From positions 1,267-65,266 of the forward strand of contig CALBPF010000339.1 in NCBI GenBank assembly GCA_937899105.1: DNA of 64,000 nt, in the 5' to 3' direction. The DNA is from an uncultured Flammeovirgaceae bacterium (lineage in GTDB: Bacteria; Bacteroidota; Bacteroidia; Cytophagales; Cyclobacteriaceae). Positions 14,996-54,590 of this stretch are shown here, one piece after another; the stretch's first letter is position 1; every line of letters starts with the position of its first letter. The position numbers and the translations under genes are program-made. The notes under the pieces are model-generated. The model did no database searches and was not told the origin of the DNA. It worked only from the letters and a program-made list of their open reading frames with translations.

Positions 14996-15030
14996 ATTCA
15001 AAATATTAATCTAGAAGTTAACTGAATTCT

Positions 15031-26621: not shown

Positions 26622-29600
26622 AATTATCTGATATCAACTTGTCGTCAAAAAAAGAACAAGAACAGCTACTTAATGATCTGGATAAGACTTCTGTTGCTTT
26701 TCCCATAAACAAGACGGTAGTAGATCTTTTTCATGATCAGGTAAAAAGAATACCAGATAACATAGCCATTAAGTTTGAAGATCAGGTAGTCACCTATTTA
26801 GAGCTGGATCGGAGGGCCTCCAAGTTAGCTTCGTTGCTTAGAAAAGAAGGTGTTATGAAAGATACCTTGGTCGGTTTGTTAGCCGATAGGAGAATAGAAA
26901 CAGTGATAGGCATATTGGCCGTACTCAAATCAGGAGGCGCATATGTACCAATTGACACTGATTACCCACAGGAAAGAATGGATTTTCTTATCCAGGACAG
27001 CGGCGTAAAAATATTATTGACTACCGAACACCAAATAGGTCATTTGCCGACGGGATTACGTTATATTCCCATACACGCAGCAGAGAAAAACTCTAGTCTT
27101 GAGCCGGTTATAGGAAACAGTATTAAACCATCCGACCTGTGCTATGTCATTTACACCTCGGGTACCACGGGTAATCCGAAAGGAGTAATGGTAGAACACA
27201 GAAATGTGGTGAGATTGTTTTTTAATGATTCATTCCAGTTTCAGTTCGGTGAAGATGATGTATGGACTATGTTCCATAGTCATTGTTTTGATTTTAGTGT
27301 TTGGGAAATATTCGGAGCGCTACTTTTCGGTGGGGAGCTTATTATAATTCCTAAAGCCGTAGCCAGGGATCCAAAAGCATTTTTGGATATTATGGTTAAT
27401 GAGCGAGTGACCGTATTAAACCAAACACCTAGTGCATTTTATAATTTGATTGAGCGGGAACTAAGCCAGGCAGATTCAATCCCAAACAGCCTTAAATATG
27501 TAATATTTGGTGGAGAAGCTTTGACGCCAGGACGATTGAAGGACTGGAAAAACAGGCATTCGGAAGTCAAAATGGTTAACATGTTTGGTATCACAGAAAC
27601 AACCGTACATGTGACTTACAAGGAGATTGGAAGCTTTGAGATAGAAAATAATCTGAGCAACGTAGGCAAGCCGATCCCTACTTTGTCGGTGTATATCCTG
27701 GATGAGCAACATAAATGGGTGCCTAAAGGTGCAGTCGGTGAAATGTATGTTGGAGGGTCAGGTGTTTCGCGCGGTTACTTAGGCAACAAAAAGCTGACCG
27801 ATCAAAAGTTCGTTTCTAACCCCTTTAAGGAAAACGAAAAGTTATACCGTACGGGTGATCTTGCACGGATCATTGATACCGGAGACATTGAATACATTGG
27901 AAGAATGGATCACCAGGTACAACTCAGAGGATTCCGGATAGAACTGGAAGAAATTCAACACAACCTGGAAAGCCATCAGCAAATATCTTCTTCCGTAGTG
28001 CTGATCATGGAAAATGAAGCGAATAAATTCCTTGTGGCTTATTATGTTTCTGACACTGAACTGGAAACCAGTACATTGAGAGCATACCTGTTGGAGAAGA
28101 TACCCGATTATATGGTGCCGTCTTACTTTGTACACCTGACAGAGCTACCTCTGACGAGTAATGGTAAGTTGAACAGGGATGCACTGCCTGACCCAGAATT
28201 AAAAACAACCCAGAACTATTTGGCTCCCAGAACAAAAGAGGAGGTTTTACTTGCGGGGATATGGTCTCAGGTCCTTGGATTTCAAGACATTGGAGTAACA
28301 GATGATTTTTTTTCCCTGGGAGGCGATTCTATCAAATCCATTCAAATAAGTTCAAGAGTGCGTGGTGAGGGATATGAACTCTCCGTCAAAGATATTTTCA
28401 CTGTTCCTACCGTTAGAGAACAGTCCTTAAAGCTTAAGCCGTTAGCAAGGACCTCTGAGCAGGCGATCATCACCGGTCCGGTTCCTCTTGCTCCCATACA
28501 AAGGTGGTTTTTTGATGGCCCAATAGAATCAAAGCATCACTTTAACCAATCGGTATTACTTCATTTTTCTGAGGAAATAAGTACGGATTTTTTAAGAAGA
28601 ATATTGTCAAAACTTCAGGAACATCATGACGTATTGCGAATGGTATTCAGAAAGGAGGGAGATGAAATACACCAAGAGAATTTAGATACGGGTTTGCAGG
28701 TTTCACTGGAAGAATATGATCTTATAGCTGGCCCAGAGTCGGAAGACTCCTTTTTAAAGATAGCGGATACATTACAATCCGGAATAAACCTGGAAGAAGG
28801 TCCTTTAATGAAAACAGCTCTTTTCCACTTTGGAACCTACAGTCGCCTGTTAATTGTAATGCATCACCTGATTACTGATGGCGTCTCATGGCGCATATTC
28901 TTAGACGATTTAGCTACATTATACCGACAAATCACAGAAGACACCCCTTTTACTTTACCTCTTAAAACAGATTCCTACAAGTCATGGGCTCAGAACCTGA
29001 AAGGGTATACTAAAAAGCCTTATTTTCTACAAGCGCTTCAATATTGGAAAAATCGTTTATCCGAGAAAGGAGAGGCGATACCAAAAGATAATCCTGATGG
29101 GCAGTGCTCACTGGAGCATTTTGATACCTCTTCTTTTCAGCTAGAAGAGAAGCTTACAAAAAGACTATTAACTCAAGCAAATTTAAGTTTCAATACTCAA
29201 ATCAGCGATCTATTGCTGACAGCATTATGGGTGGCCGTTAAAAAACAGTACGACATTGAGAAGCTTTGGATAGATATTGAAAGTCATGGCAGACATGATC
29301 TTTATGATGGCGAAAATGTAACCCGTACCATGGGGTGGTTCACAACGATCTATCCGGTTTTACTGAAAGGAGAAGCTGGCTCATTTGAAAAGATTATTAA
29401 GGATATAAAAGAAAGCCTGCGAAATATTCCTAATGATGGAATAGATGTTTTTGTAAGTAACTACCTGGGCGCCGGAAAATCACTTCCTCTTTATGATAAA
29501 TCCAGGATCAGTTTTAACTACTTGGGAGAACTATATAATGATGATACAGCCTATCCTTTCCGATTGTTAGAGGTTAACAGAGGCCATGAGGTAGCTCAAC

Positions 29601-32257: not shown

Positions 32258-32965
32258 GGTTGGAATCCAAATGATTTTGTGTTGTCTCGTGACGAGTATG
32301 AAGACCGTCATCGCATTATGTATGAGGACATAGAAACAATTAAAAACCTATGGGAAGGAGGATCTATTAAACGAGATAATGCCCTGCATCAGGAAGTAGA
32401 AGTTAAGATCTTTCCTGCTCCGATTCAGACGAAATTACCAGTATGGGTCACGGCAGCTGGAAATGAGGAGACATTCCGTCACGCCGGACAGATAGGCGCT
32501 AACTTATTAACTCATTTGCTCGGACAAGACATTGAAACATTATCGGAAAAGATCAAGATATATCGTACTGCACGAAAAAAGGCCGGATATGATAGTGGTA
32601 AAGTAGCTCTAATGCTCCACACCTACATTGGAGACTCTCTGGAAGAAGTAGAACGCGCTGTTGAAGAGCCTTTCAAAGAGTACCTGAAAAGTTCTATTAA
32701 TTTATCAAAAGTGATATTTAATGAGGGAGGCTTGAAAGAAGAAGAACTTTCCCCTGAAATGAAGGAGGAAGTGTTGACAAATGCATTTAAGCGTTACTAT
32801 AAGACCAGCTCATTGATAGGCACAAAGAGCAGCTGTATGTCAATAGTTCACCGTGCCTTGGCTATCGGGGTAGATGAAATAGCTTGTTTGATAGATTTTG
32901 GAGTGGAAGAAGGTAAAGTACTAGATAATCTGAAAAATTTACGAGACTTGAAACAAGTATTTAAC
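31940..32965 (+). other. Luciferase-like monooxygenase (MOx/LLM) domain inserted in the Gly A domain after the A4 FDxS core and upstream of the TPS/A5 cores
   Basis: The A-domain sequence ..TSTSFDISVLELFWTLCRGAQVVI is followed by MDFGLFFFSS..YADREGFRSVWTPERHF..GRVGLSFA*GWNPNDF..LPVWVTAAGNEETF. The A domain then resumes at ..ISMMQSTPSLL..NMYGPTETT. The domain spans the TAG at 32255. Confidence 0.8.
32255..32257 (+). other. In-frame TAG inside the monooxygenase domain of NRPS-3
   Basis: TTT GCA TAG GGT TGG AAT CCA AAT GAT TTT GTG reads FA*GWNPNDFV. The flanking ORFs 26618.. and 32279.. are both 2 mod 3. Confidence 0.95.
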
Positions 32966-34078: not shown

Positions 34079-34245
34079 GAATTGAACAATACCTGACCGT
34101 ACTTAGGAAGGAAAAGAATATTGTTGTTGCTTCTGAAGGCGGAAACCTTCAGATAAAAGCGAACCCAAAAGCTTTAACCAAGGAAATAGTTAATGAAATC
34201 AAGTCAAGAAAAAAGGAGATACTTGACTTTTATAGGGATACTGAA
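34075..34245 (+). other. TubC_N-like N-terminal docking domain of NRPS-4
   Basis: MRIEQYLTVLRKEKNIVVASEGGNLQIKANPKALTKEIVNEIKSRKKEILDFY follows the pattern helix, strand-turn-strand (X-L-X-V/I..), then ..L....I...K.EI..F seen in beta-hairpin NRPS docking domains. Confidence 0.55.
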
Positions 34246-37083: not shown

Positions 37084-37413
37084 TTGCCAGCGCCTAACAT
37101 AAACCTTACGCATAAATTTACTGCACCGGCAAATGGGACAGAACAGATATTGGTGGAGGTGTGGAGCGAGGTGTTGGATATTAAAATAACGACGCTCAGT
37201 GTTACAAGAAGTTTTTTTGAGCTGGGAGGCAATTCTCTGAATGCCACTGTTTTGATCAGTAAGATCAATAAGACGTTTAAAGTTACCATTCCACTGCAAT
37301 TGTTCTTCTCACTGGACACTATTCGGGAACTAGCGCATTATTTGGAATCCATTACTAACGATAGCCAGAACGTCGGAACAGTCAATGAAAATCAGGAAGA
37401 GTTTACTTTCTGA
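37084..37413 (+). CDS. NRPS-4 part b: T domain plus docking tail (continuation of the frame of 34075-37071)
   Basis: 109 aa. ..EQILVEVWSEVLDI..FFELGGNSLNATVLISKI, Ser codon 37234-37236. Tail ..NENQEEFTF. The listed start is a TTG. Confidence 0.8.
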   Translation: MPAPNINLTHKFTAPANGTEQILVEVWSEVLDIKITTLSVTRSFFELGGNSLNATVLISKINKTFKVTIPLQLFFSLDTIRELAHYLESITNDSQNVGTVNENQEEFTF

Positions 37414-37500: not shown

Positions 37501-38448
37501 ATGAATAATTTAGAATCCAAACAAAAAGTATTTCCAATTTTCAATTTGGATGATTTGGACCCAGAGGAATTTGTGGCTTATTACCTCGATCGGGAAAGAG
37601 AAATTGAAGGTCAGATTAATGAGAAGGGAGCTATCAAGTTTAGGGGTGTTCAGGTAAAATCATTGGAATCCTTTCAGTTTATTGTAGATTCTGTGGCTAA
37701 TAAATTTCTTAGTTATATTGACGGGAATTCGCCGAGAACCAAACTATCAGGTAATGTTTATACGTCTACTGAATACGACAAAACTCAAAAGATTACCATG
37801 CATAATGAGCTATCCTATTCTGCAAAATGGCCGAATAAGCTTTTTTTTAGCTGTTTGCAACCAGCGGAAACAGGAGGAGAAACACTGCTAGTAGATAGCA
37901 GGGAAATACTAGGAAAAATGAACCCTGATATTGTTTCAGAGATAGAGAGTCGTGGCGTTATCTATTTTAGGAACCTTCATGGCGGTATGGGTATGGGACC
38001 TTCATGGCAAGATACTTTCGAGACCGACGACAAGGTGCAACTTGAAGCATATTGTAAATCTTACTCTATTGATTTTGAATGGAGTGAAAATAATAGTTTG
38101 AGATTGAAACAACCCAGCAAAGGAATTATTGAACATAGAGTCACCAAAGAACGCGTTTGGTTTAACCAGATAGATCAATTTCACCCGTCGCACCTGGGAA
38201 AAGATATATATGAAGTAATGTCCACAATCTATACCTCTGCCGAGGAGTTTCCAATGTACGTAACTTATGGCGATGGAAAACCGATCCAAGAGGATATGAT
38301 ACATGAAATTATCAATACCATTAATGATATAACCATCGCTCCTCCCTGGCAGAGAGATGAGTTTCTTATTGTGGATAATGAGCTTTTCGGACACGGCAGA
38401 AATTCTTTTACAGGCGACCGAAGGGTATTGGTAGCCATGTCCAAATAA
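37501..38448 (+). CDS. TauD/TfdA-family Fe(II)/2-oxoglutarate dioxygenase, SyrP-like (candidate carrier-tethered amino acid beta-hydroxylase)
   Basis: 315 aa. ..TMHNELSYSAKWPNKLFFSCLQPAETGGETLLVDSREI.. carries the facial-triad His-x-acid (H at 37801-37803). The C-terminal ..LFGHGRNSF..R supplies the distal His and Arg. Confidence 0.75.
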   Translation: MNNLESKQKVFPIFNLDDLDPEEFVAYYLDREREIEGQINEKGAIKFRGVQVKSLESFQFIVDSVANKFLSYIDGNSPRTKLSGNVYTSTEYDKTQKITMHNELSYSAKWPNKLFFSCLQPAETGGETLLVDSREILGKMNPDIVSEIESRGVIYFRNLHGGMGMGPSWQDTFETDDKVQLEAYCKSYSIDFEWSENNSLRLKQPSKGIIEHRVTKERVWFNQIDQFHPSHLGKDIYEVMSTIYTSAEEFPMYVTYGDGKPIQEDMIHEIINTINDITIAPPWQRDEFLIVDNELFGHGRNSFTGDRRVLVAMSK

Positions 38449-38521: not shown

Positions 38522-38690
38522 GTGAAAGTAGAGAAAATCATTAGCGAGCTCACTAAAAAAGGAGCAAAGTTAAGAGTAGTTGATCATTCCCTTAAAGTGA
38601 ATGCAGATCATGGAGTGATCACTCCTGAATTGCAAAAATTGATCAGAGAGCATAAAGGGGACATCATAAATTTCATTACTGCCTCCGCAA
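38522..38690 (+). other. TubC_N-like N-terminal docking domain of NRPS-5
   Basis: MKVEKIISELTKKGAKLRVVDHSLKVNADHGVITPELQKLIREHKGDIINFI has the same pattern as the NRPS-4 and NRPS-7 N-termini. Confidence 0.55.
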
Positions 38691-41600
38691 AAAGTGAGCA
38701 AATACCATCAACTTTGCAGAAACCGCACTACAAATTATCTTATGCACAAAGGCCGATATACTTTCTATACGAATTCGATCGATCATCTTTGGCATTTAAC
38801 CTGCCTTACGCCGTAGAGCTGAAGGGTGAATTGGATAAAAATCAATTAGAGAAAGTAGTTAATAAGTTGATAAGCCGGCACGAGAGCCTTCGAACATATT
38901 TTGAACTTTATAAAGAAGAGCCGGTCCAAAAGATAGCGCCGGAACTTAAGCTCTCGATTGAGTATTTTAAAGCAGGAAATGGGGAAACAGATAGCGTTAT
39001 TGAAAGTTTCATACGCCCATTTAATCTGGAGCAGCTTCCTTTAATTAGAGTTGGACTTATAGAGGTTGACGACGCCCGTCATATTTTATTGGTAGATATA
39101 CATCACATCATTTCCGATGCGGTATCAATGCATATATTGATCAATGACTTCGTATTGCTGTTCAAAAATGAGGTATTGCCGGAGTTTTCGCTCAAGTATA
39201 AAGATTATGCCGAATGGCAGCAACAACGATTTCAAAATGAAATAAACAAACAGAAACAATTCTGGTTGAATGAATTCTCAGAATCGCCTAACAAATTTGA
39301 ATTACCAACGGATTTTGTGCGCCCTATGGTTAAAAGTCAAAAAGGGGACTCCTTTGCATTTCTCTTAAATGATGACCATTCTCAAAAATTAAGATCTGTT
39401 GCCGAGAATACTGGTACTACACTTTACATGGTCCTGATTTCCGTTTTCAACATTTTACTATCTAAACTTTCTAACCGGGAAGATATAACAGTAGGTACTT
39501 CCTTGGCAGGCAGACAGCACGCCGATCTTGAAAATATCATAGGCATGTTTGTAAATACGCTGGCGCTACGTAACTATCCGGAGGGAAAACTCAGTTTTGA
39601 GGAATTCCTAATGAATTTGAAGAATGGAGCGCTAACGTGTTTTGATAATCAGTCTTATCCTTATGAATCGCTGGTAGAGGAACTGGAAATTGAAAGAGTT
39701 TCCAATCGAAACCCCCTTTTCGACGTGATGTTTGTTTCCCGAAATTTTGGTGAATATCAATTTGATTTGCCCGGTATCACCATTCAACCCTATGAACTAA
39801 AACAAAACATATCTAAGTTTGACTTTACGCTATATGTAACAGAACAAACAAAAAATATATCGCTAAATTTCGTATATGCCGCCGACCTGTTTAAAAGAAA
39901 AACCATAAAGCGATTTAGCTCTTACTTTATAAAAATAGTCGATGCAATCGTTGATCATATCAAAATAAAAATCTCTGACATCGACATCTTGTCAGAAAAT
40001 GAAAGAAACAGACTTTTGGTCGAATTCAACACGACACAGTTTGAATTTCCAAAGGAGAAAACAATTATTGACCTTTTCGAGGATCAGTCACTTAAGACTC
40101 CCGGTAATGTGGCTGTCGTATCAAATGAAGGCTCGATAACTTACTTAGAGTTGAGTAAGAAAGTGAAAGAATGGTCGAACTTTCTAAGCGCTAATAGGTC
40201 CAATTCCGGGATTGTTGCCCTATACATGGAGCCTTCCATTGATATGATCATCGGAATCTTGTCAATTATGAGATCCGGACAGGCCTTCTTGCCCCTGGAT
40301 CCCTACCAACAATCCGATCGTGTCCAAGACATTTTGGAGGACAGTGAATGTAGCTTGTTACTGACACAACAGAATTTGGCCGATCAATTGTCATTCGCAG
40401 GGGATAAAGTGATTTTCGATCATAAGGAAAAACAGCATACTAAAGGAAAGAATAACAGAAGAATTCAAGCTACTGATTTATGCTATCTTATATATACCTC
40501 CGGAAGTACCGGAAAACCCAAAGGTGTAAAAGTGCAGCATAATAACCAGGTGAACTACGCCATATGGCTAAAGCGAACGCTGGATTTCTCACCAGACGCC
40601 AGGTCAATACTTACGTCTTCCTACGCGTTTGATTTAGGGTACTCTTCGATATTTCCAATCTTGATTAGCGGGGGCGAACTGCATATGATCCCCAGGTCAC
40701 TTTACTATTCATCTGAGGATCTTGTTCCGTATATAGAACAAAATAGTATCACTTACCTGAAGGTTACTCCTTCCTTATTCAAAACCATCATCGCTTCTAA
40801 GAGTTTTAAACAAGGAGATTTTACTAATCTGAATCACATTATCCTTGGCGGAGAATCAATTGTTATCGAGGACGTGAAAAAAGCACATAAAATGCATGAT
40901 CACATCACTTTTGTCAATCATTATGGACCTACGGAAACTACAATAGGTTCTATAGCACAAAAAATAGACTTCGATAGTGATGAGACAGTGACTTCGATTG
41001 GCCGTCCGATACATAACACTCGGGCATTTGTACTGGATCAAGATCAGAAACCCGTTCCACTTGGTGTGCCGGGAGAGCTATGCCTAGCTGGCGCCGGAGT
41101 AGGACAGGGTTATTTCAAACAAGACGAATTGACCAACGAGAAGTTTATCTCTTCGCCACTCTACCCTTATGGTAAGATCTATCGGACCGGGGATATGGCA
41201 AGATGGCTTCCTAATGGAATAATCAGTTTTCTTGGACGATCCGACAATCAGGTAAAAATAAGAGGCTACAGAGTCGAGCTGGACGAAATCTCGCATCAAT
41301 TATACAATCATGAGATGATATCAGATGCTGTGGTAATAATGAGGGAAGAAAAGGAATCTCATCAATTAGTAGGTTATTATGTCGCCGAGCATGAAATGAC
41401 AGGGGCACAGCTCAGCAATTTCCTGTCCTACAAACTGCCTGATTATATGATCCCTTCTCATTATATCAGGCTGGACCAAATGCCACTTAATCAAAATGGC
41501 AAATTAGATGTTAAGACGCTACCTGATCCTGAGCTTCAATCTACAGAAGATTACCGCATGCCTACGACTGACGAAGATCTCTTATTTGCCGACGTGTGGT

Positions 41601-44600
41601 CGCAGGTATTGGGAATTGACAAAATAGGAGTGACCGACAGCTTTTTCCTGTTAGGAGGCGATTCTATTAAATGCATACAGGTGATAGGAAGGGTGCGCAA
41701 TGCCGGCTTTAGGTTGACTGTACAGGACATTTTTACAGATCAGACCATAGACAAACTAGCCTTAAAGTTAAAAAAGATTGAAACAGAGTCGGACCAGTCA
41801 ATGGTCAAAGGTACTGCGAAACTTTCACCGATCCAGCAGTTGTTTTGGGAAAGAGAAACCCCTGATAAACATCACTATAACCAATCTGTTTTACTAAGAT
41901 TCTCCAAGGGAATATCAGAACAGTTTGCTAAAAAAATCTTCCAGAAGATACAGCTTCATCATGATGTTTTACGTTCTGTTTTTATAACCGGCGATCATGA
42001 AATAAAACAAGACATTAGAGGAGCTGAGATGCCTGTTTCACTAGAGTTTTTTGATTTAAAAGATGAAAATGACCCGGAGGCCTTTTTGTCTGCCAAGTTA
42101 GATCAAATACAATCAGGGATTGACTTGCGTCAGGGACCATTGATGAAACTGGGGCTGTTCCAAAGAGAGAATGAAAGCCTGCTTGCGATAGTGATACACC
42201 ACCTCGTAGTGGACGGAGTGTCATGGCGTATTTTACTTGAAGACATTGAAACATTGTACAGGCAGCTACAAGATGGCAAGCAGCTTTCCCTGGCGTCTAA
42301 AACGGATTCAATTCTGTCATGGTCTGAGCAGTTGGCGAGGTACGTAAAGAGTGAGCAATTTGAAATAGGAAGATCTTACTGGAGCGAACAAAAAAAGAGG
42401 ACTATACCATCAATACCAAGAGATAATTCCGACAGGGATAATCGCGTCAAAAACGCGAAAACGGTGTCCTTTCATTTGAATGAAAATGACACTCATAAGT
42501 TACGGACCCATGTAAATGTGCCTTTCAAAACTGAAGTCAATGATATCCTGTTGGCCGCCTTATTAATGAGTATTGATCATTGTTTTAACTTAAAGGTCAT
42601 TAAAATCGATCTGGAAGGTCATGGAAGAGAACGTATCACTGAGGGTACGGATGTGAGCAGAACAGTGGGTTGGTTTACCTCGATTTACCCTGCTGTACTG
42701 GAAAAAACCAGTAATGACCTTACAAAATTGGTGAAAGAAGTTAAAGAGTCTTTACGTGGAATTCCGAATAAAGGCATCGACTATCTTATTTGCCGATCCG
42801 AAGATCAGGACTACCAAAAAGACGGGAACGGAGCGACAATCAGGTATAATTACCTGGGGCAGTTTGACACGGAGTTTAAAGACAAAGCTTTCTCTTTGGC
42901 TGAAAGATCTAAAGGACGTGAAATATCCCCCGATTGGCATAGGGCCTATGATCTGGATTTTGTGGCAATTCTAACTGAAAAACAGCTTCAGATTGATCTC
43001 ACCTTTGGTCAAAAGCAGTACAAGGAGTCCACCATTAACTTCCTTATGAGCACATATCATCAGCGCCTGGTAGAGTTGATAAATTATTGTTGCGATTGTA
43101 ATAATATAGAACTAACCCCCTCTGATCTAACCTATAATCTACTGCCACAAAGAGAACTTGACGCCATTCAAAAGCTTTATCAGGTTGAGGATGTATATCC
43201 CTTATCGCCGATGCAGGAAGGGTTGTTCTTTCATTGGTTGCTTGATCCTGAATCTGAATCTTATTTTGAACAGAAGTTGCTAACTGTAAAAGGACAGTTG
43301 GACGCAACCCTCGTTAAAAAAGCTCTGAATGAGCTTATTATCAGGTACGATGTATTAAGAACCGTTTTTGCTCGTGAAGGAATGAATCGACCATTGCAGA
43401 TAGTTTTAAAAGCACGTCAACTAAATGTAAGTTTTAATGACATTCGTCCTGAACTTGAAAGAAAAAATAAGAGCGAGGTCATCGAAAATTATAAAGTCGA
43501 GGATCAACGTAAAAAATTTGACTTAAGCCATGATGTTCTGATGAGGCTGATCATCCTTCAAACGGATGCGGATGAATATGAATGGATATGGAGTTATCAC
43601 CATATTTTGATGGATGCCTGGTGTATGGGAATAATATTGAAAGACTTCCAAAAACTATATGCTAAAGCAGGCGGAAATAGTACGATCGCACTGCCTCAAC
43701 CAGATCGTTATGCCAACTATATCCAATGGCTCGAAACCAGAGACAACGCTGTTTCGAAAAAATACTGGGGTGAATACCTGTCTACTTACAGCAAACCGGT
43801 AACACTGCTGGAAGAATCACTATCACCGCCAGAAAAAGGCTTTTCTATTCCAAAAGAGCATATAACTGAATTGGATCGACATAGAGTTGCCAGGCTTAAC
43901 GAGATTGCCGGAAAATTGGGAGTAACGGTTAATACTATATTGCAAACTGCCTGGGGGCTGCTGATGGCCAAATATAACAATGTAAATGATGTAGTTTTTG
44001 GAGCGGTAGTGTCTGGTAGGCCTAGTGAAGTAAAAGGTGTAGAAGAAATGGTAGGCCTGTTCATCAATACCATACCTGTGCGAGTAAAACTTGATGAAAA
44101 ATTACCTATTGATAGTGTTATAAAAGAAGTTCAACAAAAAGCTCTACAAAGCGAAAAACATCAATATCAACCGTTATATGAAATACAATCATTAAACAGA
44201 CTTGGAAGCGAGCTTTTTGACAACATAATAGCTTTTGAAAACTACCCAATTACTAGTGAAATAGATGGTTTGAACCTTGATGATACACAGGAATACAGAT
44301 TTGAAAACGTTAGAACATTTGAATATAATAGCTATCATTTAACACTTTACGTTTTTCCTGGCGACAGTATCCATTTGAGGTTCGTTTACAGTCCAACAAG
44401 TTATAAAGAAAGCAGGGTAAAAGAATTGGCGGCGCGCTTGAAGAATATTATCTATCAAATTATAGAAAATGATGAGATCAGCGTGTCTGAAATTGAACTC
44501 ATCACTCAAGACGAAAGGAATGAGATTAACGACGCCATAACGGATTACAGGCGCTTTAATCTCGCCTTAGAAAAAAATATACCGGTATCTTATCACCAGG

Positions 44601-47600
44601 AGAGATTATGGTTTATTGATAAATTTGAGACCGGCTATTTGTATGAAAATAGTCCTGTTTATCATAATCTTCCTCTTGTCCTGAACTTGAATGGAGATTT
44701 AAACCGCGGAGCGCTGGAAAAGAGTATCCATGCCATAGTTCAGAAGTATGGAATACTACGGACAGGAATTGTTAGCATAGATGAAAGACCTTTCCAAAAT
44801 ATACACGAGGTTTCAACTTTTAATTTGGAGTTTCAAGATGTCACATCACAAGGGGCGGCACAAATTGAAAACCTTGTGCTTAAAGAGGTAAACCTACCTT
44901 TCGATCTTGAAAAACCTTTAATTCGGGGTAGATTATTTCAGACTGACAAATCTGCGTATAAGCTGGTCTTAGTGTTCCATCATATTATGGTTGATCGTTA
45001 TTCTGTACGCAAGTTATCAGAAGAAATAATTTCAATCTATGATGATTACTTGTCTGGGTCTTACGCAGAGCGCTTTGAAACGGCATTAGACTATACAGGA
45101 TTTTTGTCGTGGCAAAAACAGTCCCTGTCCACGCTTGACACGCATTTCCTTTCTTACTGGAAACCACAGCTAAGTGAGGGGCTTAAGCCGCTGGAACTAT
45201 CCACTGACCGGCCACGAGCAACTGTACACACCTATACCGGCGCCTATTTGGATGTGAGTATACCCCGTGACCTGGTGGCTAAACTAAGAGCTTACGAACT
45301 AAAGTCTCAGATTTCTGCAGAGGTACTTTTCATGGGCATGTTTAATGTTTTACTGAACAAGTATAGCCAGCAAGAAGAAATTGTGATCGGAACAAGCGCT
45401 CTAAACAGAAAGCATGAAATTTCACAAAGCATAATAGGTCCGGTAGCCAATTTGATTGTTATCAGAAGTATTGTATCCTCGAATACTAGTTTTTTCGAAT
45501 ATGTCAGTCATTTGAAAGAGGTTTTCGACCGCGGGCTTGAATATCAAGATATGCCTTTCGATAAATTGGTTAAAGAATTGGCTCCTAACAAGGATATGAG
45601 TCGAACGGCCCTCTTTGATGTACTTTATCAATACGAAGAGAACGTTAATCCGGATCGCTTGACCACAGCTAACCTTAATGTGAGCATCCAGGAAACCAAT
45701 TTTGGTTACGGTAAATATGATTTAAACCTTCTTTTACAAAGCTCGGAAGAAGATGTACAAGGTAAGCTGGTTTATAATGCCGACTATTTTGATCGTTCTA
45801 CAATTGAATTATTTGTTAAACATTATTATAGCTTAATTCAAAGTTTACTGCACCAGCCTACTTATAAACTATCAGGTATTGAACTTATACCTGATAAGGA
45901 AAGACCTGAACTCTTAGCCCAATTTGACAATATCAACGTGACCTTTCCAAAAGATAAAACCATTGTTGAATTGTTTAAACACCAGGTTACACATACTCCT
46001 GGTAACATCGCTGTTGTATTTAAAGGAAAGACATTGACCTATGCTGAGCTGGATGCAAGGTCAACCAAGCTGGCATGGGTATTAAGAGGCAAAGGGGTCG
46101 GTTCTGATCAGCTGGTTGGGATTTTGGTAGATAGATCTATTGAAATGGTGGTAGGGATATTAGCCATTCTTAAGTCAGGAGGCGCTTATTTACCCATTGA
46201 TACCGACTACCCTAAAGAAAGGATCGATTTCTTGATTGAAGATAGTGGGCTGAAAGCGCTGCTTACCACGAAAGATCAGCAGCTGGGTTTCTCTGACAAT
46301 GTTTCAGTACTGTATATAGAAGACGTCGATGAAATGGACGATCATGTTAATGAAATCGACAATGTCAATAAGCCATCTGATCTATGTTATGTGATTTATA
46401 CCTCGGGAACGACAGGTGTTCCTAAAGGGGTAATGGTAGAACACAAAAATGTGGTAAGGCTGTTTTTTAATGATGCTTTTCAATTTGATTTTGGTCCCAA
46501 AGATGTATGGACCATGTTTCATAGCCATTGCTTCGACTTTAGTGTGTGGGAGATATTCGGAGCCCTGCTGTCTGGAGGAAAACTGGTTATTATTCCTAAA
46601 ATGATTGCCAGGGACACCAAAGTTTTTTGGAATATATTGAAAGAGCAGAAGGTAACTGTGCTCAATCAAACCCCTAGTGCGTTTTACAATTTAATGGAGG
46701 AAGATACCCAACATCCTACACCTGAATTAGACCTGCGATATGTGATATTTGGTGGAGAAGCGCTGAGTCCGAAAAAACTTGCCTCTTGGAGATCAAAATA
46801 TCCTGAAACGATGTTGATCAACATGTTCGGCATTACTGAAACTACCGTTCATGTTACCTACAAAGAAATTGGCGATAAAGAAATAGACAACAACACCAGT
46901 AGTATTGGCAAACCTATACCAACATTATCTTGCCACCTCTTCGATCAAAATCAGAAGCTAATTCCAAATGGGGTAATTGGTGAATTATACGTAGGTGGAG
47001 AGGGTGTATCACGAGGCTATTTAAATAATAAAGAACTTACCAATAAAAGATTCATTCCTAACCCTTATAATCCGTCCGAACGGTTGTACCGAACCGGAGA
47101 CTTGGCGCGGATACTAAAAAGTGGAGATATTGAATACCTTGGCAGGATCGATAATCAGGTTCAACTGAGAGGTTTCAGAATAGAATTGGGAGAGATCGAA
47201 ATGCAACTGTCAGGATATCAGGATATTAATGAATGTGTGGTGGTGGCTAAAGAAAAACAGGAGCATATATACCTTGCCGCCTATTACGTATCACAAAAAG
47301 AAATCGAGGTATCGGTATTGAAAAGCTTCCTATCCGATAAACTGCCTGAATACATGATCCCTTCCTTTTACATTCACCTGATGGAGATACCTTTAACTTC
47401 TAACGGAAAGCTAGACAAAACAGCATTACCAGTCCCTGAGATAAAGACAAATGAAAATTACGAAAGTCCTTTAGGCGCTACAGAAGAAAAAATGGCTGTT
47501 ATATGGGCAGATATTTTAGATATAGAAAGAGATAAGATCAGCTGTTATGACAATTTCTTTGACTTAGGCGGGCATTCCATCATAGCCGTACGGTTGATAG

Positions 47601-49018
47601 GCCGAATACAACAGACATTTGCTGTAACTATTAGGCTAAAGGAAATTTTCACTTTTCCAACCATAGACAAACTGTCGCAGAGGCTGGAAAATGTCGAATC
47701 AGGAAGTGCAACGACGATCCCGAAAATTGAGCGGAAGGCATTCTATCAGACCTCATATGCACAGAAGCGATGTTACTTCGAGCAGGAAATTGACAAGCGA
47801 TCCACAATAAATAATACCACTAGCGTACACAGGATAATAGGAAAGTTAGATCATGATAAACTGGATAAGACGTTTCAAGCCCTGGTGGACAGACATGAAG
47901 GATTGAGGACACATTTTGAGGTATCAGGAAATGAAGTAGTCTCGCGTATAGAAGTAACGGCAAGTATTGCTTGCGAGTATTTGGATGGAATCGACTATCC
48001 GTTATTGGAAGAGGCCTTAGACGCCTTTATAAGACCATTTGATCTTTCCAGTTGCCCGCTTTTAAGGTATGGCATTTATCAAAATGATAAACAGGGTGAT
48101 TTTCTATTGGTGGATATACATCATATTGTCTGCGATGGAGTTTCTCTGAATATTCTAATGAACGACTTTATCCGCCTTTATTCAGGTGATACTTTGCCTC
48201 CGTTAGCGCTCGATTATGTGGATTATGCCGTATGGCAACAAGCTGGAATTGATACCCTGGAGAAACAACGTACTTATTGGGCAGAACAACTCTTACCGAC
48301 CTACTTTGAACCTGATCTGCCCACGTTACAAGACCGTGGATCGGTTAAGGTTCATGCTGCTGACCGCTCGGAACTAAAGATCTCGACAGAATTAAGTGAT
48401 AAGATTAAGAGTTATGTGACTGAGGCAGGTGTATCCAATTTTATGTTCTTCCTATCGTGTTATTACATTCTACTATCTAAAATGTCAGGAAGCGATGATA
48501 TTATTATAAGCACGAATTCTATTGGAAGAACACAGAAAGAACTCGAAAATATTGTAGGTTCCTTTGTTAACCTGATACCTCTCCGAGCTGATATTAAACC
48601 TGAAATGGTTTATGATGATTTTCTGTCACAGGTGAAAACTAATGTTTTGATGGCCCTGGAAAATCAGGACTTCCAATACGATGATATGGTCCTTATGACG
48701 GAAGGCAATGGGAGTAGCAACATTTTAGACCTGTTTTTCTCCTACATTAACTTCTTTGATGCTCAGTCAACTACTGGCGAGTTATCGTTTTCGCCGGTAA
48801 AACTGAAAGTCAATCAGGAGGTTGCCAGATTCGGACTTGAATTGATTATTTTTGAATACGGCGACCATTTCCAGGTAGGTTTAAGGTATAGTTCAGATCT
48901 CTATGACAGAGAAACAATAGAATTATTCACTCAGTACTACTATAATATTGTCCAGTGTGTATTACTTGATCGTAATATGACCATTGAAAATATTGAATTT
49001 GAATTTACAATGATATAA
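38522..49018 (+). CDS. NRPS-5: docking-C-A(Asp-like)-T-E-C(D-donor type)-Cprime-A(Thr)-T-C(terminal)
   Basis: 3498 aa, GTG start. C: IHHIISDAVS ~39101-39130. A: TSGSTGKPKG ~40495-40525, code DLSKIGHIGK. T: GGDSIKCIQ ~41650. E: HHLVVDGVSW ~42195-42230. C: HHILMDAWC ~43590-43620. Cprime: FHHIMVDRYS 44975-45004. A: TSGTTGVPKG ~46400-46430, code DFWNIGMVHK. T: GGHSI ~47570. Terminal C: IHHIVCDGVS ~48116-48150. The ORF ends with a complete C domain. Confidence 0.95.
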   Translation: MKVEKIISELTKKGAKLRVVDHSLKVNADHGVITPELQKLIREHKGDIINFITASAKSEQIPSTLQKPHYKLSYAQRPIYFLYEFDRSSLAFNLPYAVELKGELDKNQLEKVVNKLISRHESLRTYFELYKEEPVQKIAPELKLSIEYFKAGNGETDSVIESFIRPFNLEQLPLIRVGLIEVDDARHILLVDIHHIISDAVSMHILINDFVLLFKNEVLPEFSLKYKDYAEWQQQRFQNEINKQKQFWLNEFSESPNKFELPTDFVRPMVKSQKGDSFAFLLNDDHSQKLRSVAENTGTTLYMVLISVFNILLSKLSNREDITVGTSLAGRQHADLENIIGMFVNTLALRNYPEGKLSFEEFLMNLKNGALTCFDNQSYPYESLVEELEIERVSNRNPLFDVMFVSRNFGEYQFDLPGITIQPYELKQNISKFDFTLYVTEQTKNISLNFVYAADLFKRKTIKRFSSYFIKIVDAIVDHIKIKISDIDILSENERNRLLVEFNTTQFEFPKEKTIIDLFEDQSLKTPGNVAVVSNEGSITYLELSKKVKEWSNFLSANRSNSGIVALYMEPSIDMIIGILSIMRSGQAFLPLDPYQQSDRVQDILEDSECSLLLTQQNLADQLSFAGDKVIFDHKEKQHTKGKNNRRIQATDLCYLIYTSGSTGKPKGVKVQHNNQVNYAIWLKRTLDFSPDARSILTSSYAFDLGYSSIFPILISGGELHMIPRSLYYSSEDLVPYIEQNSITYLKVTPSLFKTIIASKSFKQGDFTNLNHIILGGESIVIEDVKKAHKMHDHITFVNHYGPTETTIGSIAQKIDFDSDETVTSIGRPIHNTRAFVLDQDQKPVPLGVPGELCLAGAGVGQGYFKQDELTNEKFISSPLYPYGKIYRTGDMARWLPNGIISFLGRSDNQVKIRGYRVELDEISHQLYNHEMISDAVVIMREEKESHQLVGYYVAEHEMTGAQLSNFLSYKLPDYMIPSHYIRLDQMPLNQNGKLDVKTLPDPELQSTEDYRMPTTDEDLLFADVWSQVLGIDKIGVTDSFFLLGGDSIKCIQVIGRVRNAGFRLTVQDIFTDQTIDKLALKLKKIETESDQSMVKGTAKLSPIQQLFWERETPDKHHYNQSVLLRFSKGISEQFAKKIFQKIQLHHDVLRSVFITGDHEIKQDIRGAEMPVSLEFFDLKDENDPEAFLSAKLDQIQSGIDLRQGPLMKLGLFQRENESLLAIVIHHLVVDGVSWRILLEDIETLYRQLQDGKQLSLASKTDSILSWSEQLARYVKSEQFEIGRSYWSEQKKRTIPSIPRDNSDRDNRVKNAKTVSFHLNENDTHKLRTHVNVPFKTEVNDILLAALLMSIDHCFNLKVIKIDLEGHGRERITEGTDVSRTVGWFTSIYPAVLEKTSNDLTKLVKEVKESLRGIPNKGIDYLICRSEDQDYQKDGNGATIRYNYLGQFDTEFKDKAFSLAERSKGREISPDWHRAYDLDFVAILTEKQLQIDLTFGQKQYKESTINFLMSTYHQRLVELINYCCDCNNIELTPSDLTYNLLPQRELDAIQKLYQVEDVYPLSPMQEGLFFHWLLDPESESYFEQKLLTVKGQLDATLVKKALNELIIRYDVLRTVFAREGMNRPLQIVLKARQLNVSFNDIRPELERKNKSEVIENYKVEDQRKKFDLSHDVLMRLIILQTDADEYEWIWSYHHILMDAWCMGIILKDFQKLYAKAGGNSTIALPQPDRYANYIQWLETRDNAVSKKYWGEYLSTYSKPVTLLEESLSPPEKGFSIPKEHITELDRHRVARLNEIAGKLGVTVNTILQTAWGLLMAKYNNVNDVVFGAVVSGRPSEVKGVEEMVGLFINTIPVRVKLDEKLPIDSVIKEVQQKALQSEKHQYQPLYEIQSLNRLGSELFDNIIAFENYPITSEIDGLNLDDTQEYRFENVRTFEYNSYHLTLYVFPGDSIHLRFVYSPTSYKESRVKELAARLKNIIYQIIENDEISVSEIELITQDERNEINDAITDYRRFNLALEKNIPVSYHQERLWFIDKFETGYLYENSPVYHNLPLVLNLNGDLNRGALEKSIHAIVQKYGILRTGIVSIDERPFQNIHEVSTFNLEFQDVTSQGAAQIENLVLKEVNLPFDLEKPLIRGRLFQTDKSAYKLVLVFHHIMVDRYSVRKLSEEIISIYDDYLSGSYAERFETALDYTGFLSWQKQSLSTLDTHFLSYWKPQLSEGLKPLELSTDRPRATVHTYTGAYLDVSIPRDLVAKLRAYELKSQISAEVLFMGMFNVLLNKYSQQEEIVIGTSALNRKHEISQSIIGPVANLIVIRSIVSSNTSFFEYVSHLKEVFDRGLEYQDMPFDKLVKELAPNKDMSRTALFDVLYQYEENVNPDRLTTANLNVSIQETNFGYGKYDLNLLLQSSEEDVQGKLVYNADYFDRSTIELFVKHYYSLIQSLLHQPTYKLSGIELIPDKERPELLAQFDNINVTFPKDKTIVELFKHQVTHTPGNIAVVFKGKTLTYAELDARSTKLAWVLRGKGVGSDQLVGILVDRSIEMVVGILAILKSGGAYLPIDTDYPKERIDFLIEDSGLKALLTTKDQQLGFSDNVSVLYIEDVDEMDDHVNEIDNVNKPSDLCYVIYTSGTTGVPKGVMVEHKNVVRLFFNDAFQFDFGPKDVWTMFHSHCFDFSVWEIFGALLSGGKLVIIPKMIARDTKVFWNILKEQKVTVLNQTPSAFYNLMEEDTQHPTPELDLRYVIFGGEALSPKKLASWRSKYPETMLINMFGITETTVHVTYKEIGDKEIDNNTSSIGKPIPTLSCHLFDQNQKLIPNGVIGELYVGGEGVSRGYLNNKELTNKRFIPNPYNPSERLYRTGDLARILKSGDIEYLGRIDNQVQLRGFRIELGEIEMQLSGYQDINECVVVAKEKQEHIYLAAYYVSQKEIEVSVLKSFLSDKLPEYMIPSFYIHLMEIPLTSNGKLDKTALPVPEIKTNENYESPLGATEEKMAVIWADILDIERDKISCYDNFFDLGGHSIIAVRLIGRIQQTFAVTIRLKEIFTFPTIDKLSQRLENVESGSATTIPKIERKAFYQTSYAQKRCYFEQEIDKRSTINNTTSVHRIIGKLDHDKLDKTFQALVDRHEGLRTHFEVSGNEVVSRIEVTASIACEYLDGIDYPLLEEALDAFIRPFDLSSCPLLRYGIYQNDKQGDFLLVDIHHIVCDGVSLNILMNDFIRLYSGDTLPPLALDYVDYAVWQQAGIDTLEKQRTYWAEQLLPTYFEPDLPTLQDRGSVKVHAADRSELKISTELSDKIKSYVTEAGVSNFMFFLSCYYILLSKMSGSDDIIISTNSIGRTQKELENIVGSFVNLIPLRADIKPEMVYDDFLSQVKTNVLMALENQDFQYDDMVLMTEGNGSSNILDLFFSYINFFDAQSTTGELSFSPVKLKVNQEVARFGLELIIFEYGDHFQVGLRYSSDLYDRETIELFTQYYYNIVQCVLLDRNMTIENIEFEFTMI
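44575..45870 (+). other. Extra C-like domain (Cprime) between the condensation domain and the Thr A domain of NRPS-5
   Basis: ~430 aa. Starts PVSYHQERLWFIDKFETGYLY..; active-site box HHIMVDRYS (Gly replaced by Arg). A C-terminal lobe is present (SYWKPQLSEG.., ..IGPVANLIVIR..). It is flanked on both sides by a copy of the C-A linker motif (ISVSEIELITQDERNEI.. and KLSGIELIPDKERPELL..). Confidence 0.75.
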
Positions 49019-49194: not shown

Positions 49195-50655
49195 ATGAAA
49201 ATACTCATTTTAAGCATCCTTAGTTTATTGTGCCATACCACTTTGGACCTGTACGGACAATCTAATAAATACTTCACCAGTGCAGGGCGTAAAATAGATG
49301 TCAATAGTTTTGATGCTGATATCCGGAAAATGATTGAAGAAATGGGAGTTCCAGCAGTGTCATTGGCTGTGATTAACAACAACGAAATTGTTTACTCCAA
49401 CACATATGGCGTAAAATCTACCTCCAAAAATAATAAAGCAAATAAAAATACAGTTTTCGAATCTTGCTCCCTGGGTAAGAGCTTTTTAGTGTTTGTAGTA
49501 TTGAAAATGGCCGAAGAAGGCAAGCTAGACCTGGACAAACCTGTTTTCGAATACCTTCCAAACCAAAAGCTTGAACACGACCCCCGGTATAAATTGATCA
49601 CTCCGAGAATGATTATTTCACACACCTCTGGTCTTGAAAACTGGCAACGTTATAACGATGAGAACAAGTTGGAAATATTGAAAACGCCAGGTGAGGCATT
49701 CACTTACTCCGGAGAGGGTATCAATTATTTAGCAGCGGCCATCGAGGCAATACTGGGCCGATCTTATGCAGAATATGTAAATGATATGATCATCGGTCCG
49801 CTTGACCTGGATCGTACTTTTTTAAATTTCAAAAGTCATACTATTATTCCCTTTTCAAAAGGCACGCCTTCTAATTTTGCTACCGGGCACAATTCTTTCG
49901 CTGAAGAATTCACTAAATTCAGAAATAGCGAACCTATTGCCGCAGGCGGCATTAACCAGACCGCTGAAGATTATGCTAAACTCTTCCTGGCCACTTTCGA
50001 TGGTAATTTTCTCTCCGAAGACATAAGGCAAGAGATCCTAAAGCCAGCTATATATTTTGACGATTCTACACGTTACATGGGCCATGGCTATGCAGTATTA
50101 CTTTATGAAAATGACACCATTATTTCTTTTAGCGGAAATAATCGCGGTTATAAGGGTGAAATACTATATTCCACTATTTCCAAGAATGGCTTTGTCTTCT
50201 TTTCTAACAGCGATCGAGGAAAATTAATGACCTCTCAGCTGAATAGCATGTCTGCACGTCTGCCACTTGGAAGTTATTTCAAAGGCTACTTTAAGCAATA
50301 TCCCAGTAAAGCCATTCAATTATTACAAGTATATCGAGAGAAGAGCTCCGAATCAATGTTTAAACATATAGCTAAAATGCATGAGTCTGGTAAAATCGAC
50401 GAAGATACCATGAATGAGCTTGGTGATGTATTTTTATATCATGACCTAACAATTTCTAAAAACATCCTTGAAATGTCCATAAAATGGTATCCTAATTCTG
50501 CTACGGCTTACTGCCTTATGGGACATGCTTATAAACAGTCCGATGATACTAGCCGCTCTTATAAGTACTTTTTGAAGGCTAAAGCATTAGGGTTTGATCT
50601 GTGGAATATCGACCGCTACATCCAGGAATATGAGAATAGCCAAGCGTCTCGTTAA
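49195..50655 (+). CDS. Secreted S12 / beta-lactamase-fold serine hydrolase with a C-terminal TPR-like region
   Basis: 486 aa. N-terminal signal-like MKILILSILSLLCHTTLDLYGQ. SxxK box SLGK (Ser 49468-49470). FTYSGEGINY (Tyr box) and ISHTSGL are typical of class C beta-lactamase / D-aminopeptidase relatives. The last ~110 aa are helical repeat-like. Confidence 0.75.
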   Translation: MKILILSILSLLCHTTLDLYGQSNKYFTSAGRKIDVNSFDADIRKMIEEMGVPAVSLAVINNNEIVYSNTYGVKSTSKNNKANKNTVFESCSLGKSFLVFVVLKMAEEGKLDLDKPVFEYLPNQKLEHDPRYKLITPRMIISHTSGLENWQRYNDENKLEILKTPGEAFTYSGEGINYLAAAIEAILGRSYAEYVNDMIIGPLDLDRTFLNFKSHTIIPFSKGTPSNFATGHNSFAEEFTKFRNSEPIAAGGINQTAEDYAKLFLATFDGNFLSEDIRQEILKPAIYFDDSTRYMGHGYAVLLYENDTIISFSGNNRGYKGEILYSTISKNGFVFFSNSDRGKLMTSQLNSMSARLPLGSYFKGYFKQYPSKAIQLLQVYREKSSESMFKHIAKMHESGKIDEDTMNELGDVFLYHDLTISKNILEMSIKWYPNSATAYCLMGHAYKQSDDTSRSYKYFLKAKALGFDLWNIDRYIQEYENSQASR

Positions 50656-53870: not shown

Positions 53871-54590
53871 ATGCCAGTAGAATCAAAACTAGATTTCAAA
53901 ACACTAAATGCAAATAAAAAGATACGGACAAAGAATTACTGGAGGAATAGGCTGTCAGGTTTTGAGTTCAGTTCCTACTTTGATCAGGGACCAGAGAAAG
54001 AGGCGCATGGCCAACTGGTCCACAGTATATCTGCGCCAAGATCTACGATAAAAGCGCTAAATAACGTAGCACAATCTGATAGAGCAAAACATGTTGTATT
54101 ATTGGCGGCATTAGGTGTCCTTATTCAAAAGAGTTCCTCATACTCGGATATAGCGGTTGTAACTTCTGTGTACAAGCGTGACGACCGTCCGGGAAGCTCC
54201 AATGTGGTTTTACCGGTAAGATTCGAGAAGTACAACGCTGAACTGTCATTTACAAGACTTCTTACTGTTTTAAGGGACAAATTGCTCAAAGATCTTGAGC
54301 ATGCTGACTATCCTATAGAAAAAATACTCGACAAAAGGTATGATGAACTAAAGCAGACTAATGTGATTGGGATGCATCTAACAGGGTTACAAGCAAGCCC
54401 TTTGCAAGCGCCGATGTCGTTTGATATGATCTTTGGCTTTTCTTCTGACCTTGATAACCTCAGACTAAGCATCGAATATGATCACGCGAGGCACAACCTT
54501 GCCTATGTAGCTCAGATTGGGCAATTGTATTTCAGTTTACTGGAGAAGCTAATTCTTCAAAGAGAAAAAGCGCTTAGCCAGATTGAAATT
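53871..54590 (+). other. N-terminally truncated C-like lobe at the start of NRPS-6
   Basis: It begins at the position equivalent to the mid-domain YW..L motif (KNYWRNRLSG). It lacks the whole N-terminal lobe and the catalytic His motif, and ends in the usual linker ALSQIEIISEIDKHKIINEFNQT. Confidence 0.65.

Follow-up and report, generated by a model that had tools for sequence, protein, structure and literature searches.

A threonine-coupled extra condensation-type domain in nonribosomal peptide synthetases as a candidate C-beta epimerase

Introduction

Extra condensation (C) domains with a DR box are already known from threonine (Thr) and beta-hydroxy amino acid modules of nonribosomal peptide synthetases (NRPSs), where they have been proposed to act as C-beta inverters. 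In MgpC, which belongs to the megapolipeptin system of Paraburkholderia megapolitana, two C domains precede an adenylation (A) domain with a Thr code and a thiolation (T) domain (C-C-A-T-...), and the second C domain is alone in having the box HHxxxDR; megapolipeptin contains L-allo-Thr next to L-Thr, both Thr residues coming from the MgpC module. The hypeptin paper (PMC8252469, refs 9 and 10) sets a 'scarce additional C domain' together with domains of lysobactin (LybB) and jagaricin assembly that it calls 'known Cβ epimerases', and the extra domain of HynA module 5, which reads HRxxxDR, was judged inactive, in line with the unchanged C-beta configuration (PMC8252469). Jagaricin B contains N-methyl-L-allo-Thr. 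Lysobactin carries allo-Thr at position 8. A domain of this appearance, here termed C', is found in the Thr module of NRPS-5, one of the synthetases encoded in a stretch of 64,000 nucleotides from an uncultured Flammeovirgaceae bacterium (contig CALBPF010000339.1); the window, in what follows, means the whole of this stretch as analysed.

By its sequence, C' belongs to a clade derived from C domains of the LCL type (those joining an L-configured donor to an L-configured acceptor), with the signature SYHQERLWF near the N-terminus and HHxxxD(R/K) instead of HHxxxDG. The explanation that fits best as a whole, and to which we give an even chance of being right, is that C' of NRPS-5 would invert C-beta of carrier-bound L-Thr and thereby yield L-allo-Thr. 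The wider claim, that C' and its relatives, a widespread family with at least 85 members in many phyla and stand-alone forms included, are catalytic C-beta epimerases, which would be a reaction new to the condensation-domain superfamily, stands slightly short of even.

The threonine module of NRPS-5

In the open reading frame (ORF) of NRPS-5, Pfam finds one TubC_N docking domain, five Condensation stretches and two domains each of the A and T types. With phmmer, a hidden Markov model (HMM) of the C' family, and further HMMs for A and T made from window sequences, these resolve into the order dock-C(LCL-like)-A(Asp)-T-E-C(DCL-like)-C'-A(Thr)-T-C(LCL-like), where E is an epimerization domain and DCL denotes a C domain that takes a D-configured donor. 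The features, in window positions and amino acids (aa) of NRPS-5, are:

38522..49018, plus strand: NRPS-5 ORF, 3498 aa, described from the ORF list, Pfam, the HMM domain order and Stachelhaus codes
aa 72-479: first C domain, LCL-like
Asp A domain of NRPS-5: code DLSKIGHIGK
41888..43081, plus strand: E domain of the Asp module (aa 1123-1520), VIHHLVVDGVS, 85 bits to the C' HMM, grouping with E domains
43280..44476, plus strand: regular C domain of the Thr module (aa 1587-1985), DCL type, SYHHILMDAWC, 131 bits to the C' HMM, placed with DCL domains in a neighbour-joining (NJ) tree
44477..44581, plus strand: linker from C to C', in which the opening of the C-A linker is partly repeated (SEIELITQDERNEI), recognized by reading the sequence and comparing it with the C'-A linker
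44582..45868, plus strand: C' (aa 2021-2449), 596 bits to the family HMM, SYHQERLWF and H2153-H2154-IMV-D2158-R2159
45956..47410, plus strand: Thr A domain, code DFWNIGMVHK, Pfam AMP-binding and AMP-binding_C
47495..47686, plus strand: T domain of the Thr module (aa 2992-3055), Pfam PP-binding, of the GGHSI type found before LCL domains
47753..48979, plus strand: terminal C domain (aa 3078-3486), LCL type, 208 bits to the C' HMM, DIHHIVCDGVS

C' lies between the module's own DCL domain and its A domain (aa 2479 onward). Upstream, the E domain of the Asp module provides the following C domain with a D-configured donor, while the terminal LCL domain pairs in trans with the first serine (Ser) module of NRPS-6. 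An initial annotation, made from the sequence alone, had described a second C-fold domain at 44575-45870 with the start SYHQERLWFIDKFE and the box HHIMVDRYS, behind a C domain of the D-donor type, and all of this proved correct, the active-site box reading VFHHIMVDRYS. It had also seen a second copy of the C-A linker behind C', of which only the beginning stands: the first ~15 residues are duplicated (VSEIELITQDERNEI after C, LSGIELIPDKERPEL after C'), and the rest of the linker is not.

The AlphaFold model of C' (pLDDT 84) has an ordinary C fold, with template-modelling (TM) scores of 0.85-0.89 to Txo2, TycC6 and DhbF. The best sequence matches in the Protein Data Bank (PDB) are plain LCL domains, with 162 bits for TycC6, 160 for Txo2 and 153 for DhbF, and sequence and fold searches of the PDB with C' returned ordinary C domains only; the 'special condensation domain' of entry 8z0q is the C-T didomain of HtmB2 and is uninformative on C'. 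Assignment to the heterocyclization (Cy) domains was rejected, C' having HHIMVDRYS in place of the DxxxxD box and scoring 34-37 bits against the Cy domain of BmdB. C' keeps all seven LCL core motifs. It has, however, DR in place of DG and family-specific His residues in SYHQ and YHN, and it is supernumerary beside the DCL domain of its module.

The C' family

Relatives of C' were sought with the C' alignment in one genome per species; the exact peptide SYHQ[EQ]RLW was required, and 76 loci were returned. At a membership cut-off of at least 340 bits to the family HMM there are 72 members, two in the window and 70 in 68 fetched loci of other genomes, with sources among the Bacteroidota, Acidobacteriota, Aminicenantes, Pseudomonas (corrugata, mediterranea, brassicacearum), Methylovulum, Aliikangiella, Planctomycetota and others. 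An independent sample, taken from a representative library in which giant NRPSs dominate because hits are ranked by summed score, added 15 C' domains in 14 giant NRPSs, some with SFHQ or SWHQ; each of the 15 comes after another C domain and is followed by an A domain with a Thr code. Scores to the family HMM are 347-596 bits for C', ~190-336 for LCL domains (~355 for a few of those in giant NRPSs), ~95-190 for DCL domains and less than ~120 for E and interface (I) domains. The closest relatives of C' are from Bacteroidota, the best being that of a Chitinophagales metagenome-assembled genome (MAG) with 48% identity, and a tblastn search of a plasmid collection gave generic LCL domains only, at 31-33% identity.

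Conservation within the family is high. Among the 70 members of other genomes, 59 positions are at least 90% conserved, across phyla and at an overall identity of ~35%, and C' of NRPS-5 matches all 59 of them. In the active-site box, the first His is present in 70/70, the second (catalytic) His in 68/70 and the Asp in 70/70, and in 65/70 the Asp is followed by R or K where the motif would have Gly. A C-domain phylogeny was calculated by neighbour joining: C' forms a monophyletic clade nested within LCL and apart from I-like domains, with a bootstrap of 91/100 when the NRPS-6 copy is included.

The setting of the domain is also recurrent. A C-like domain precedes C' in the same protein in 41 of the 72 cases (29 LCL, 8 DCL, 4 other); another 26 open a subunit, the preceding subunit usually ending in C, and four stand alone. 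A protein search for C' relatives found, with the N-terminal signature in common, proteins that start with C' followed by A, together with stand-alone proteins of 421 aa in many Flavobacterium species. Separate C' proteins of ~420-470 aa were observed in L001, L053 and L065 (Flavobacterium, a Flavobacteriaceae MAG and Chryseobacterium), in which the gene lies between an NRPS ending in E or C and the gene of the Thr module.

Coupling of C' to threonine

The A domain behind C' has a Thr code (DFW[NS][IV]GM[VI]HK) in 62/64 cases and in 15/15 of the giant NRPSs, that is 77/79 in total. The two others are the Ser A domain behind a decayed copy in NRPS-6 and one Leu-like domain. The coupling is independent of a downstream E domain, which follows in the loci L055, L058 and L074. 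The initial annotation had concluded that the extra domain tracks L-configured beta-hydroxy amino acids; this did not hold, as the partner is Thr regardless of E and the Ser copies are decayed. In agreement with that annotation, C' was not found by HMM scan in any of the modules for Asn, Gly or Asp; the Thr module of NRPS-3, which has an E domain, lacks it too and serves as a comparator:

26729..28168, plus strand: Thr A domain of NRPS-3, without C', in an A-T-E module, clustering with the Thr A domain of NRPS-5

In the A-domain tree, Thr A domains without C' intermix with those linked to it, and the Thr A domain of NRPS-3 adjoins that of NRPS-5. The possibility that the C'-linked Thr A domains are a lineage of their own that needs C' was rejected on this basis; thus C' is not a mere structural need of one A-domain lineage.

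Other peculiarities of the neighbouring A domains were recorded. In L012, L020 and L073 (~aa 600-1140 of each ORF), the A domain behind C' is broken after ~110 residues by an insert of ~540 aa, which in L020 has a CxxxCxxC radical-SAM motif (CPYNCAYCC) and a part resembling B12-binding domains; the whole gives the impression of an A domain into which a radical-SAM (methyl?)transferase has been built. An unassigned A code, DSALIAEVWK, recurs beside the C'-Thr module across distant Proteobacteria, in L025-L034 and L056 (Pseudomonas), L023 (Methylovulum), L044 (Aliikangiella) and L059 (Sulfidibacter). One module earlier, the code DLKNVGSDVK is exchanged in Pseudomonas sp. TH31 for an Orn-like one, DMENMGAVNK.

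Degenerate copies in NRPS-6

The recurrence of C' in NRPS-6, reported in the initial annotation, was confirmed for both Ser modules, and both copies are degenerate:

57864..59135, plus strand: degenerate full-length C' of the second Ser module (aa 1332-1755), PFHLEKLWN and HRIIADPRS, 494 bits to the family HMM, inside the C' clade
53910..54326, plus strand: C-terminal-lobe remnant of C' at the N-terminus of NRPS-6 (aa 14-152), HMM positions 186-332, 22 bits, E-value 7e-9

The full-length copy stands before an A domain with a Ser code (DVWHFSLVDK). It retains 24 of the 59 family-conserved positions and has lost 35, the other 70 members all having at least 52, and its catalytic His is replaced by Arg; the domain is probably inactive. 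A homologue search of the database found no relatives of it at E<=1e-10. The remnant, whose phmmer match covers C' positions 195-334, precedes the first Ser A domain. Chance resemblance between the NRPS-5 and the full-length NRPS-6 copy is ruled out, because the two match each other at 224 bits and have the HMM scores given above.

The preferred interpretation for NRPS-6 is that both Ser-module copies are decayed relics, as their sequences suggest. Their decay fits a beta-epimerase, because Ser has no beta-stereocentre, and it is unexpected for a dehydratase or for a recruiter of O-tailoring enzymes, which favours the reading as an epimerase.

At 56490-57776 of the window (aa 874-1302), NRPS-6 also has a DCL-like C domain (EYHHALLDGWS) that follows the T domain of the first Ser module (aa ~798, GGDSI, E-type) with no E domain between them. 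This arrangement has been described for dual epimerization/condensation (E/C) domains or dehydrating C domains, and it may give D-Ser or dehydroalanine (Dha).

Proposed C-beta epimerization and competing explanations

In the mechanism that we propose, the A domain would load L-Thr onto the T domain, which would offer C' the Thr, or the peptidyl-Thr just formed, at its acceptor side. To invert C-beta, C' would then draw on the second His, which it has kept, on the conserved His residues that it has gained (SYHQ, YHN) and on the Arg that stands where the motif has Gly. Inversion might run by retro-aldol/aldol or dehydration/rehydration (elimination/re-addition), with L-allo-Thr as the outcome in either case. 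The upstream DCL domain would join the chain ending in D-Asp to L-allo-Thr, and the downstream LCL domain would hand the chain on.

Of the proteinogenic amino acids that NRPSs commonly use, it is Thr that combines a beta-stereocentre with a beta-hydroxyl. Epimerization is favoured over the alternatives in the initial annotation because the family is restricted to Thr, and a dehydratase or an O-tailoring recruiter should serve Ser equally; because the sole copies in Ser modules, those of NRPS-6, are decayed; and because the catalytic His is strongly conserved, unlike in the scaffolding I and X domains.

Several points weigh against C-beta epimerization. To our knowledge, there is no biochemical proof of such a reaction for any C-like domain. 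Lysobacter, J. agaricidamnosum and Paraburkholderia were not returned by the genome scan with the exact peptide SYHQ[EQ]RLW, which is weak evidence as the variants SFHQ and SWHQ exist. The link of C' to the LybB, jagaricin, MgpC and HynA domains is confined to three features, namely the domain architecture, the specificity for Thr and the DR motif. The megapolipeptin authors found the second C domain of MgpC to group with starter C domains and proposed iterative use or capping. Finally, essentially all LCL core motifs are retained in C', as for genuine acyl transfer.

The last two points are shared by an alternative that we regard as unlikely, namely that C' performs a second acyl transfer, with the Thr A-T pair used twice to give Thr-Thr, or with Thr acylated at N or O by another donor. 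The retention of the seven core motifs and the catalytic His speaks for it, and the C-C-A-T unit of MgpC does give two consecutive Thr. Moreover, A-less C-T(-E) modules adjoin C'-A(Thr)-T in L037, L039, L077 and L044, an arrangement that points to more than one T domain being served by the Thr A domain there. Against a second transfer stand the presence of one T domain per module, C domains having no covalent holding site, and the replacement of the motif Gly by R or K in nearly all members; the restriction to Thr would be hard to explain as well. In addition, lysobactin and jagaricin reportedly contain just one allo-Thr at the position in question, which makes allo-Thr, and not Thr-Thr, the common denominator.

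Dehydration of Thr to dehydrobutyrine (Dhb), which the initial annotation had offered along with Dha, is improbable for C'. It would agree with the retained catalytic His, with the specificity of the family for Thr, and with the extra invariant His residues in SYHQ and YHN near the active-site strand, which recall the extra His of NocB C5. However, the characterized dehydrating C domains are of the DCL or dual type and act downstream of a Ser- or Thr-loaded T domain of the GGDSx type, whereas C' is derived from LCL, lies upstream of A-T and is paired with a GGHSI T domain; its scores of 48 bits against AmbE and 45 against McyA, compared with 162 against TycC6, point the same way. On these grounds, assignment to the dehydrating, or modified-amino-acid (modAA), C domains was rejected. 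No intact member of the family occurs in a Ser module, though Dha is as common as Dhb, and, should dehydration occur in the cluster at all, a better candidate would be the DCL-like C domain after the first Ser T domain of NRPS-6 (GGDSI, no E).

A further explanation makes C' a non-catalytic docking platform, similar to I or X domains, that recruits the TauD hydroxylase, the FkbM methyltransferase, the carbamoyltransferase or the amidotransferase encoded in the cluster; we consider it very improbable. The interface domain was reportedly defined in siderophore NRPSs by Reitz et al. in 2019. I domains are placed N-terminal of an A domain, lack the HHxxxDG histidines, or at least the second of them, and partner with TauD-type beta-hydroxylases. 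C' occupies the same position just ahead of A, and an I domain was the first identity tried, because a TauD gene lies directly before NRPS-5; a TauD homologue is also found within 10 kb of C' in 17/78 loci, mostly beside or fused to a neighbouring NRPS gene. The identity was rejected on the Thr rather than Asp A code, the intact HH box (the catalytic His, lost in I and X domains, is kept in 68/70 members) and the separate clade. Indeed, the fetched loci contain true I-like domains (L001, L017, L018, L021, L022, L077) directly after TauD genes and ahead of A domains for Asp or Asn; they are devoid of the HH pair (SLPSLYADS, LYALWADS), form a clade of their own near E and score 70-116 bits to the C' HMM. 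The vicinity of TauD is thus explained without C', since TauD is followed by an I domain and an Asp/Asn module. Identity with an X domain, a type of glycopeptide NRPSs that has a dead HRxxxDD-type active site, follows the last T domain and recruits P450 oxygenases, was likewise rejected (HH box intact, internal position before A, 81 bits against 4tx2 compared with 162 against TycC6), and no P450 was found among the window ORFs of at least 150 aa that were scanned. As for the tailoring enzymes, homologues near C' in the 78 loci number two for FkbM, four for AsnB, and none for the carbamoyltransferase or for the radical-SAM enzyme; the recruitment of the FkbM methyltransferase or the carbamoyltransferase suggested in the initial annotation is accordingly unlikely.

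Least probable of all is a functionless leftover of module recombination or a structural spacer for A, which would account for the clearly decaying NRPS-6 copies and for the partial linker duplication, suggestive of an insertion or fusion event, but not for the full set of conserved positions in the NRPS-5 copy or for the stand-alone C' conserved across many Flavobacterium species, and the related Thr A domain of NRPS-3, which works without C', shows that C' is no obligatory A chaperone.

Implications of a possible C-beta epimerization by C'

If C' is a C-beta epimerase, all four Thr stereoisomers would be within reach of NRPSs: C' alone would give L-allo-Thr, E alone, as in NRPS-3, D-allo-Thr, and C' with E, as in L055, L058 and L074, D-Thr. 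The signature SYHQERLWF / HHxxxD(R/K) before a Thr A domain would then predict L-allo-Thr or, with a downstream E domain, D-Thr. We know of no NRPS prediction tool that makes a separate call for the C' type or for allo-Thr stereochemistry, and allo-Thr would be mispredicted in many clusters. For the peptide of the window, the same reasoning would have NRPS-3 contribute D-allo-Thr and NRPS-5 L-allo-Thr, with Ser handled in the ordinary way by NRPS-6. A reaction possibly new to the C fold could conveniently be examined on the C'-A-T unit of NRPS-5 or on the stand-alone proteins of 421 aa from Flavobacterium.

The surrounding gene cluster

The window has a G+C content of ~39% and contains one large NRPS cluster, with synthetase genes and a TauD gene at the following positions:

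7521-13982: NRPS gene
20751-26621: NRPS gene
26618-32257, continued at 32279-34078: NRPS gene (NRPS-3)
34075-37071: NRPS gene (NRPS-4)
38522-49018: NRPS gene (NRPS-5)
53871-61040: NRPS gene (NRPS-6)
from ~61043: NRPS gene
37501-38448: TauD-family dioxygenase, SyrP/At3g21360-like, directly before NRPS-5

Accessory genes encode a HemN-like radical-SAM enzyme, an acyl-CoA ligase, a MacB-type exporter, a carbamoyltransferase, a beta-lactamase-fold protein, an FkbM methyltransferase and an AsnB-like amidotransferase. The TauD protein would most simply serve the Asp module that opens NRPS-5; this Asp(+E) module, after the TauD gene, lacks an interface domain, and its C domain is an ordinary one of LCL-like type (HHIISDAVS). 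A SbnA/SbnB-like pair (a PALP enzyme and an ornithine cyclodeaminase, OCD) at 14015-15990 probably supplies a 2,3-diaminopropionate (Dap) building block. The beta-lactamase-fold protein is encoded at 49195-50655; because no thioesterase (TE) domain was found in the NRPS genes scanned in the window, it could be an off-loading cyclase of the penicillin-binding-protein (PBP) type. The Chitinophagales MAG locus with the best C' relative also has PALP, OCD and beta-lactamase homologues.

Two of the synthetase genes are interrupted. NRPS-4, with the order dock-C-A(Gly), has an in-frame TAG at 37069-37071 within its A10 motif (..PLPPNGM*NKKELP..), and its T domain resumes in the same frame past the TAG at ~37096-37335 (81.7 bits to the T HMM); the TAG could be a sequencing error, a sign of a pseudogene or a site of read-through. 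In NRPS-3 (26618-34078), the terminal Gly-like A domain is split by a luciferase-like monooxygenase (MOx) in the order A-MOx-A-T, as in MtaG/MelG, and the unit is broken by a stop between 32257 and 32279. Units of the MtaG/MelG type make a terminal amide or hydroxy-Gly.

Comparison with known systems

The initial annotation had found no obvious match for the extra domain among X, I and modAA domains. This still stands, but a precedent exists in the extra C domains that the megapolipeptin, hypeptin, lysobactin and jagaricin synthetases carry, a kind that C' of NRPS-5 matches in position, Thr coupling and DR box. Among other subtypes, dehydrating or modAA C domains resemble C' as proposed here in changing the beta-position of Ser or Thr, but they also condense, are of the DCL or dual type and follow a GGDSx T domain. 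E domains share with it the C-superfamily fold, the His of the HH motif as base and a change of stereochemistry in a T-bound residue without bond formation; they lie downstream of T, act at C-alpha and form their own clade, whereas C' lies upstream of A and would act at C-beta. I domains are like C' in being C-fold domains directly N-terminal of A that often open a subunit after a predecessor ending in C, and they differ in the missing HHxxxDG histidines, in their Asp, Asn, His or Glu A domains and in their TauD-type hydroxylase partner.

Closer parallels are offered by the extra C domains introduced at the outset. The second C domain of MgpC, compared by description, likewise lies between a C domain and a Thr-coded A domain and has the HHxxxDR box, although it is read by its authors as capping or iterating, with two Thr from the module, and not as an inverter. 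The extra domain of HynA module 5 parallels the full-length NRPS-6 copy in that its second His is changed to Arg, its module is not for Thr and it is presumably inactive; that module makes beta-hydroxy-Asn, in contrast to the Ser module of NRPS-6, whose copy has additionally lost most of the conserved positions. The LybB and jagaricin domains are, like C', scarce extra C domains in a beta-hydroxy module, with L-allo-Thr products and a function that is proposed only. By architecture, Thr specificity and the DR motif, we infer that C' is of the same kind as the extra C domains of MgpC, HynA, LybB and the jagaricin synthetase. Compared with these individual cases, the gain is at the level of the family, with at least 85 further members, a near-absolute coupling to Thr, a signature of 59 positions, stand-alone forms and a separation from I domains.

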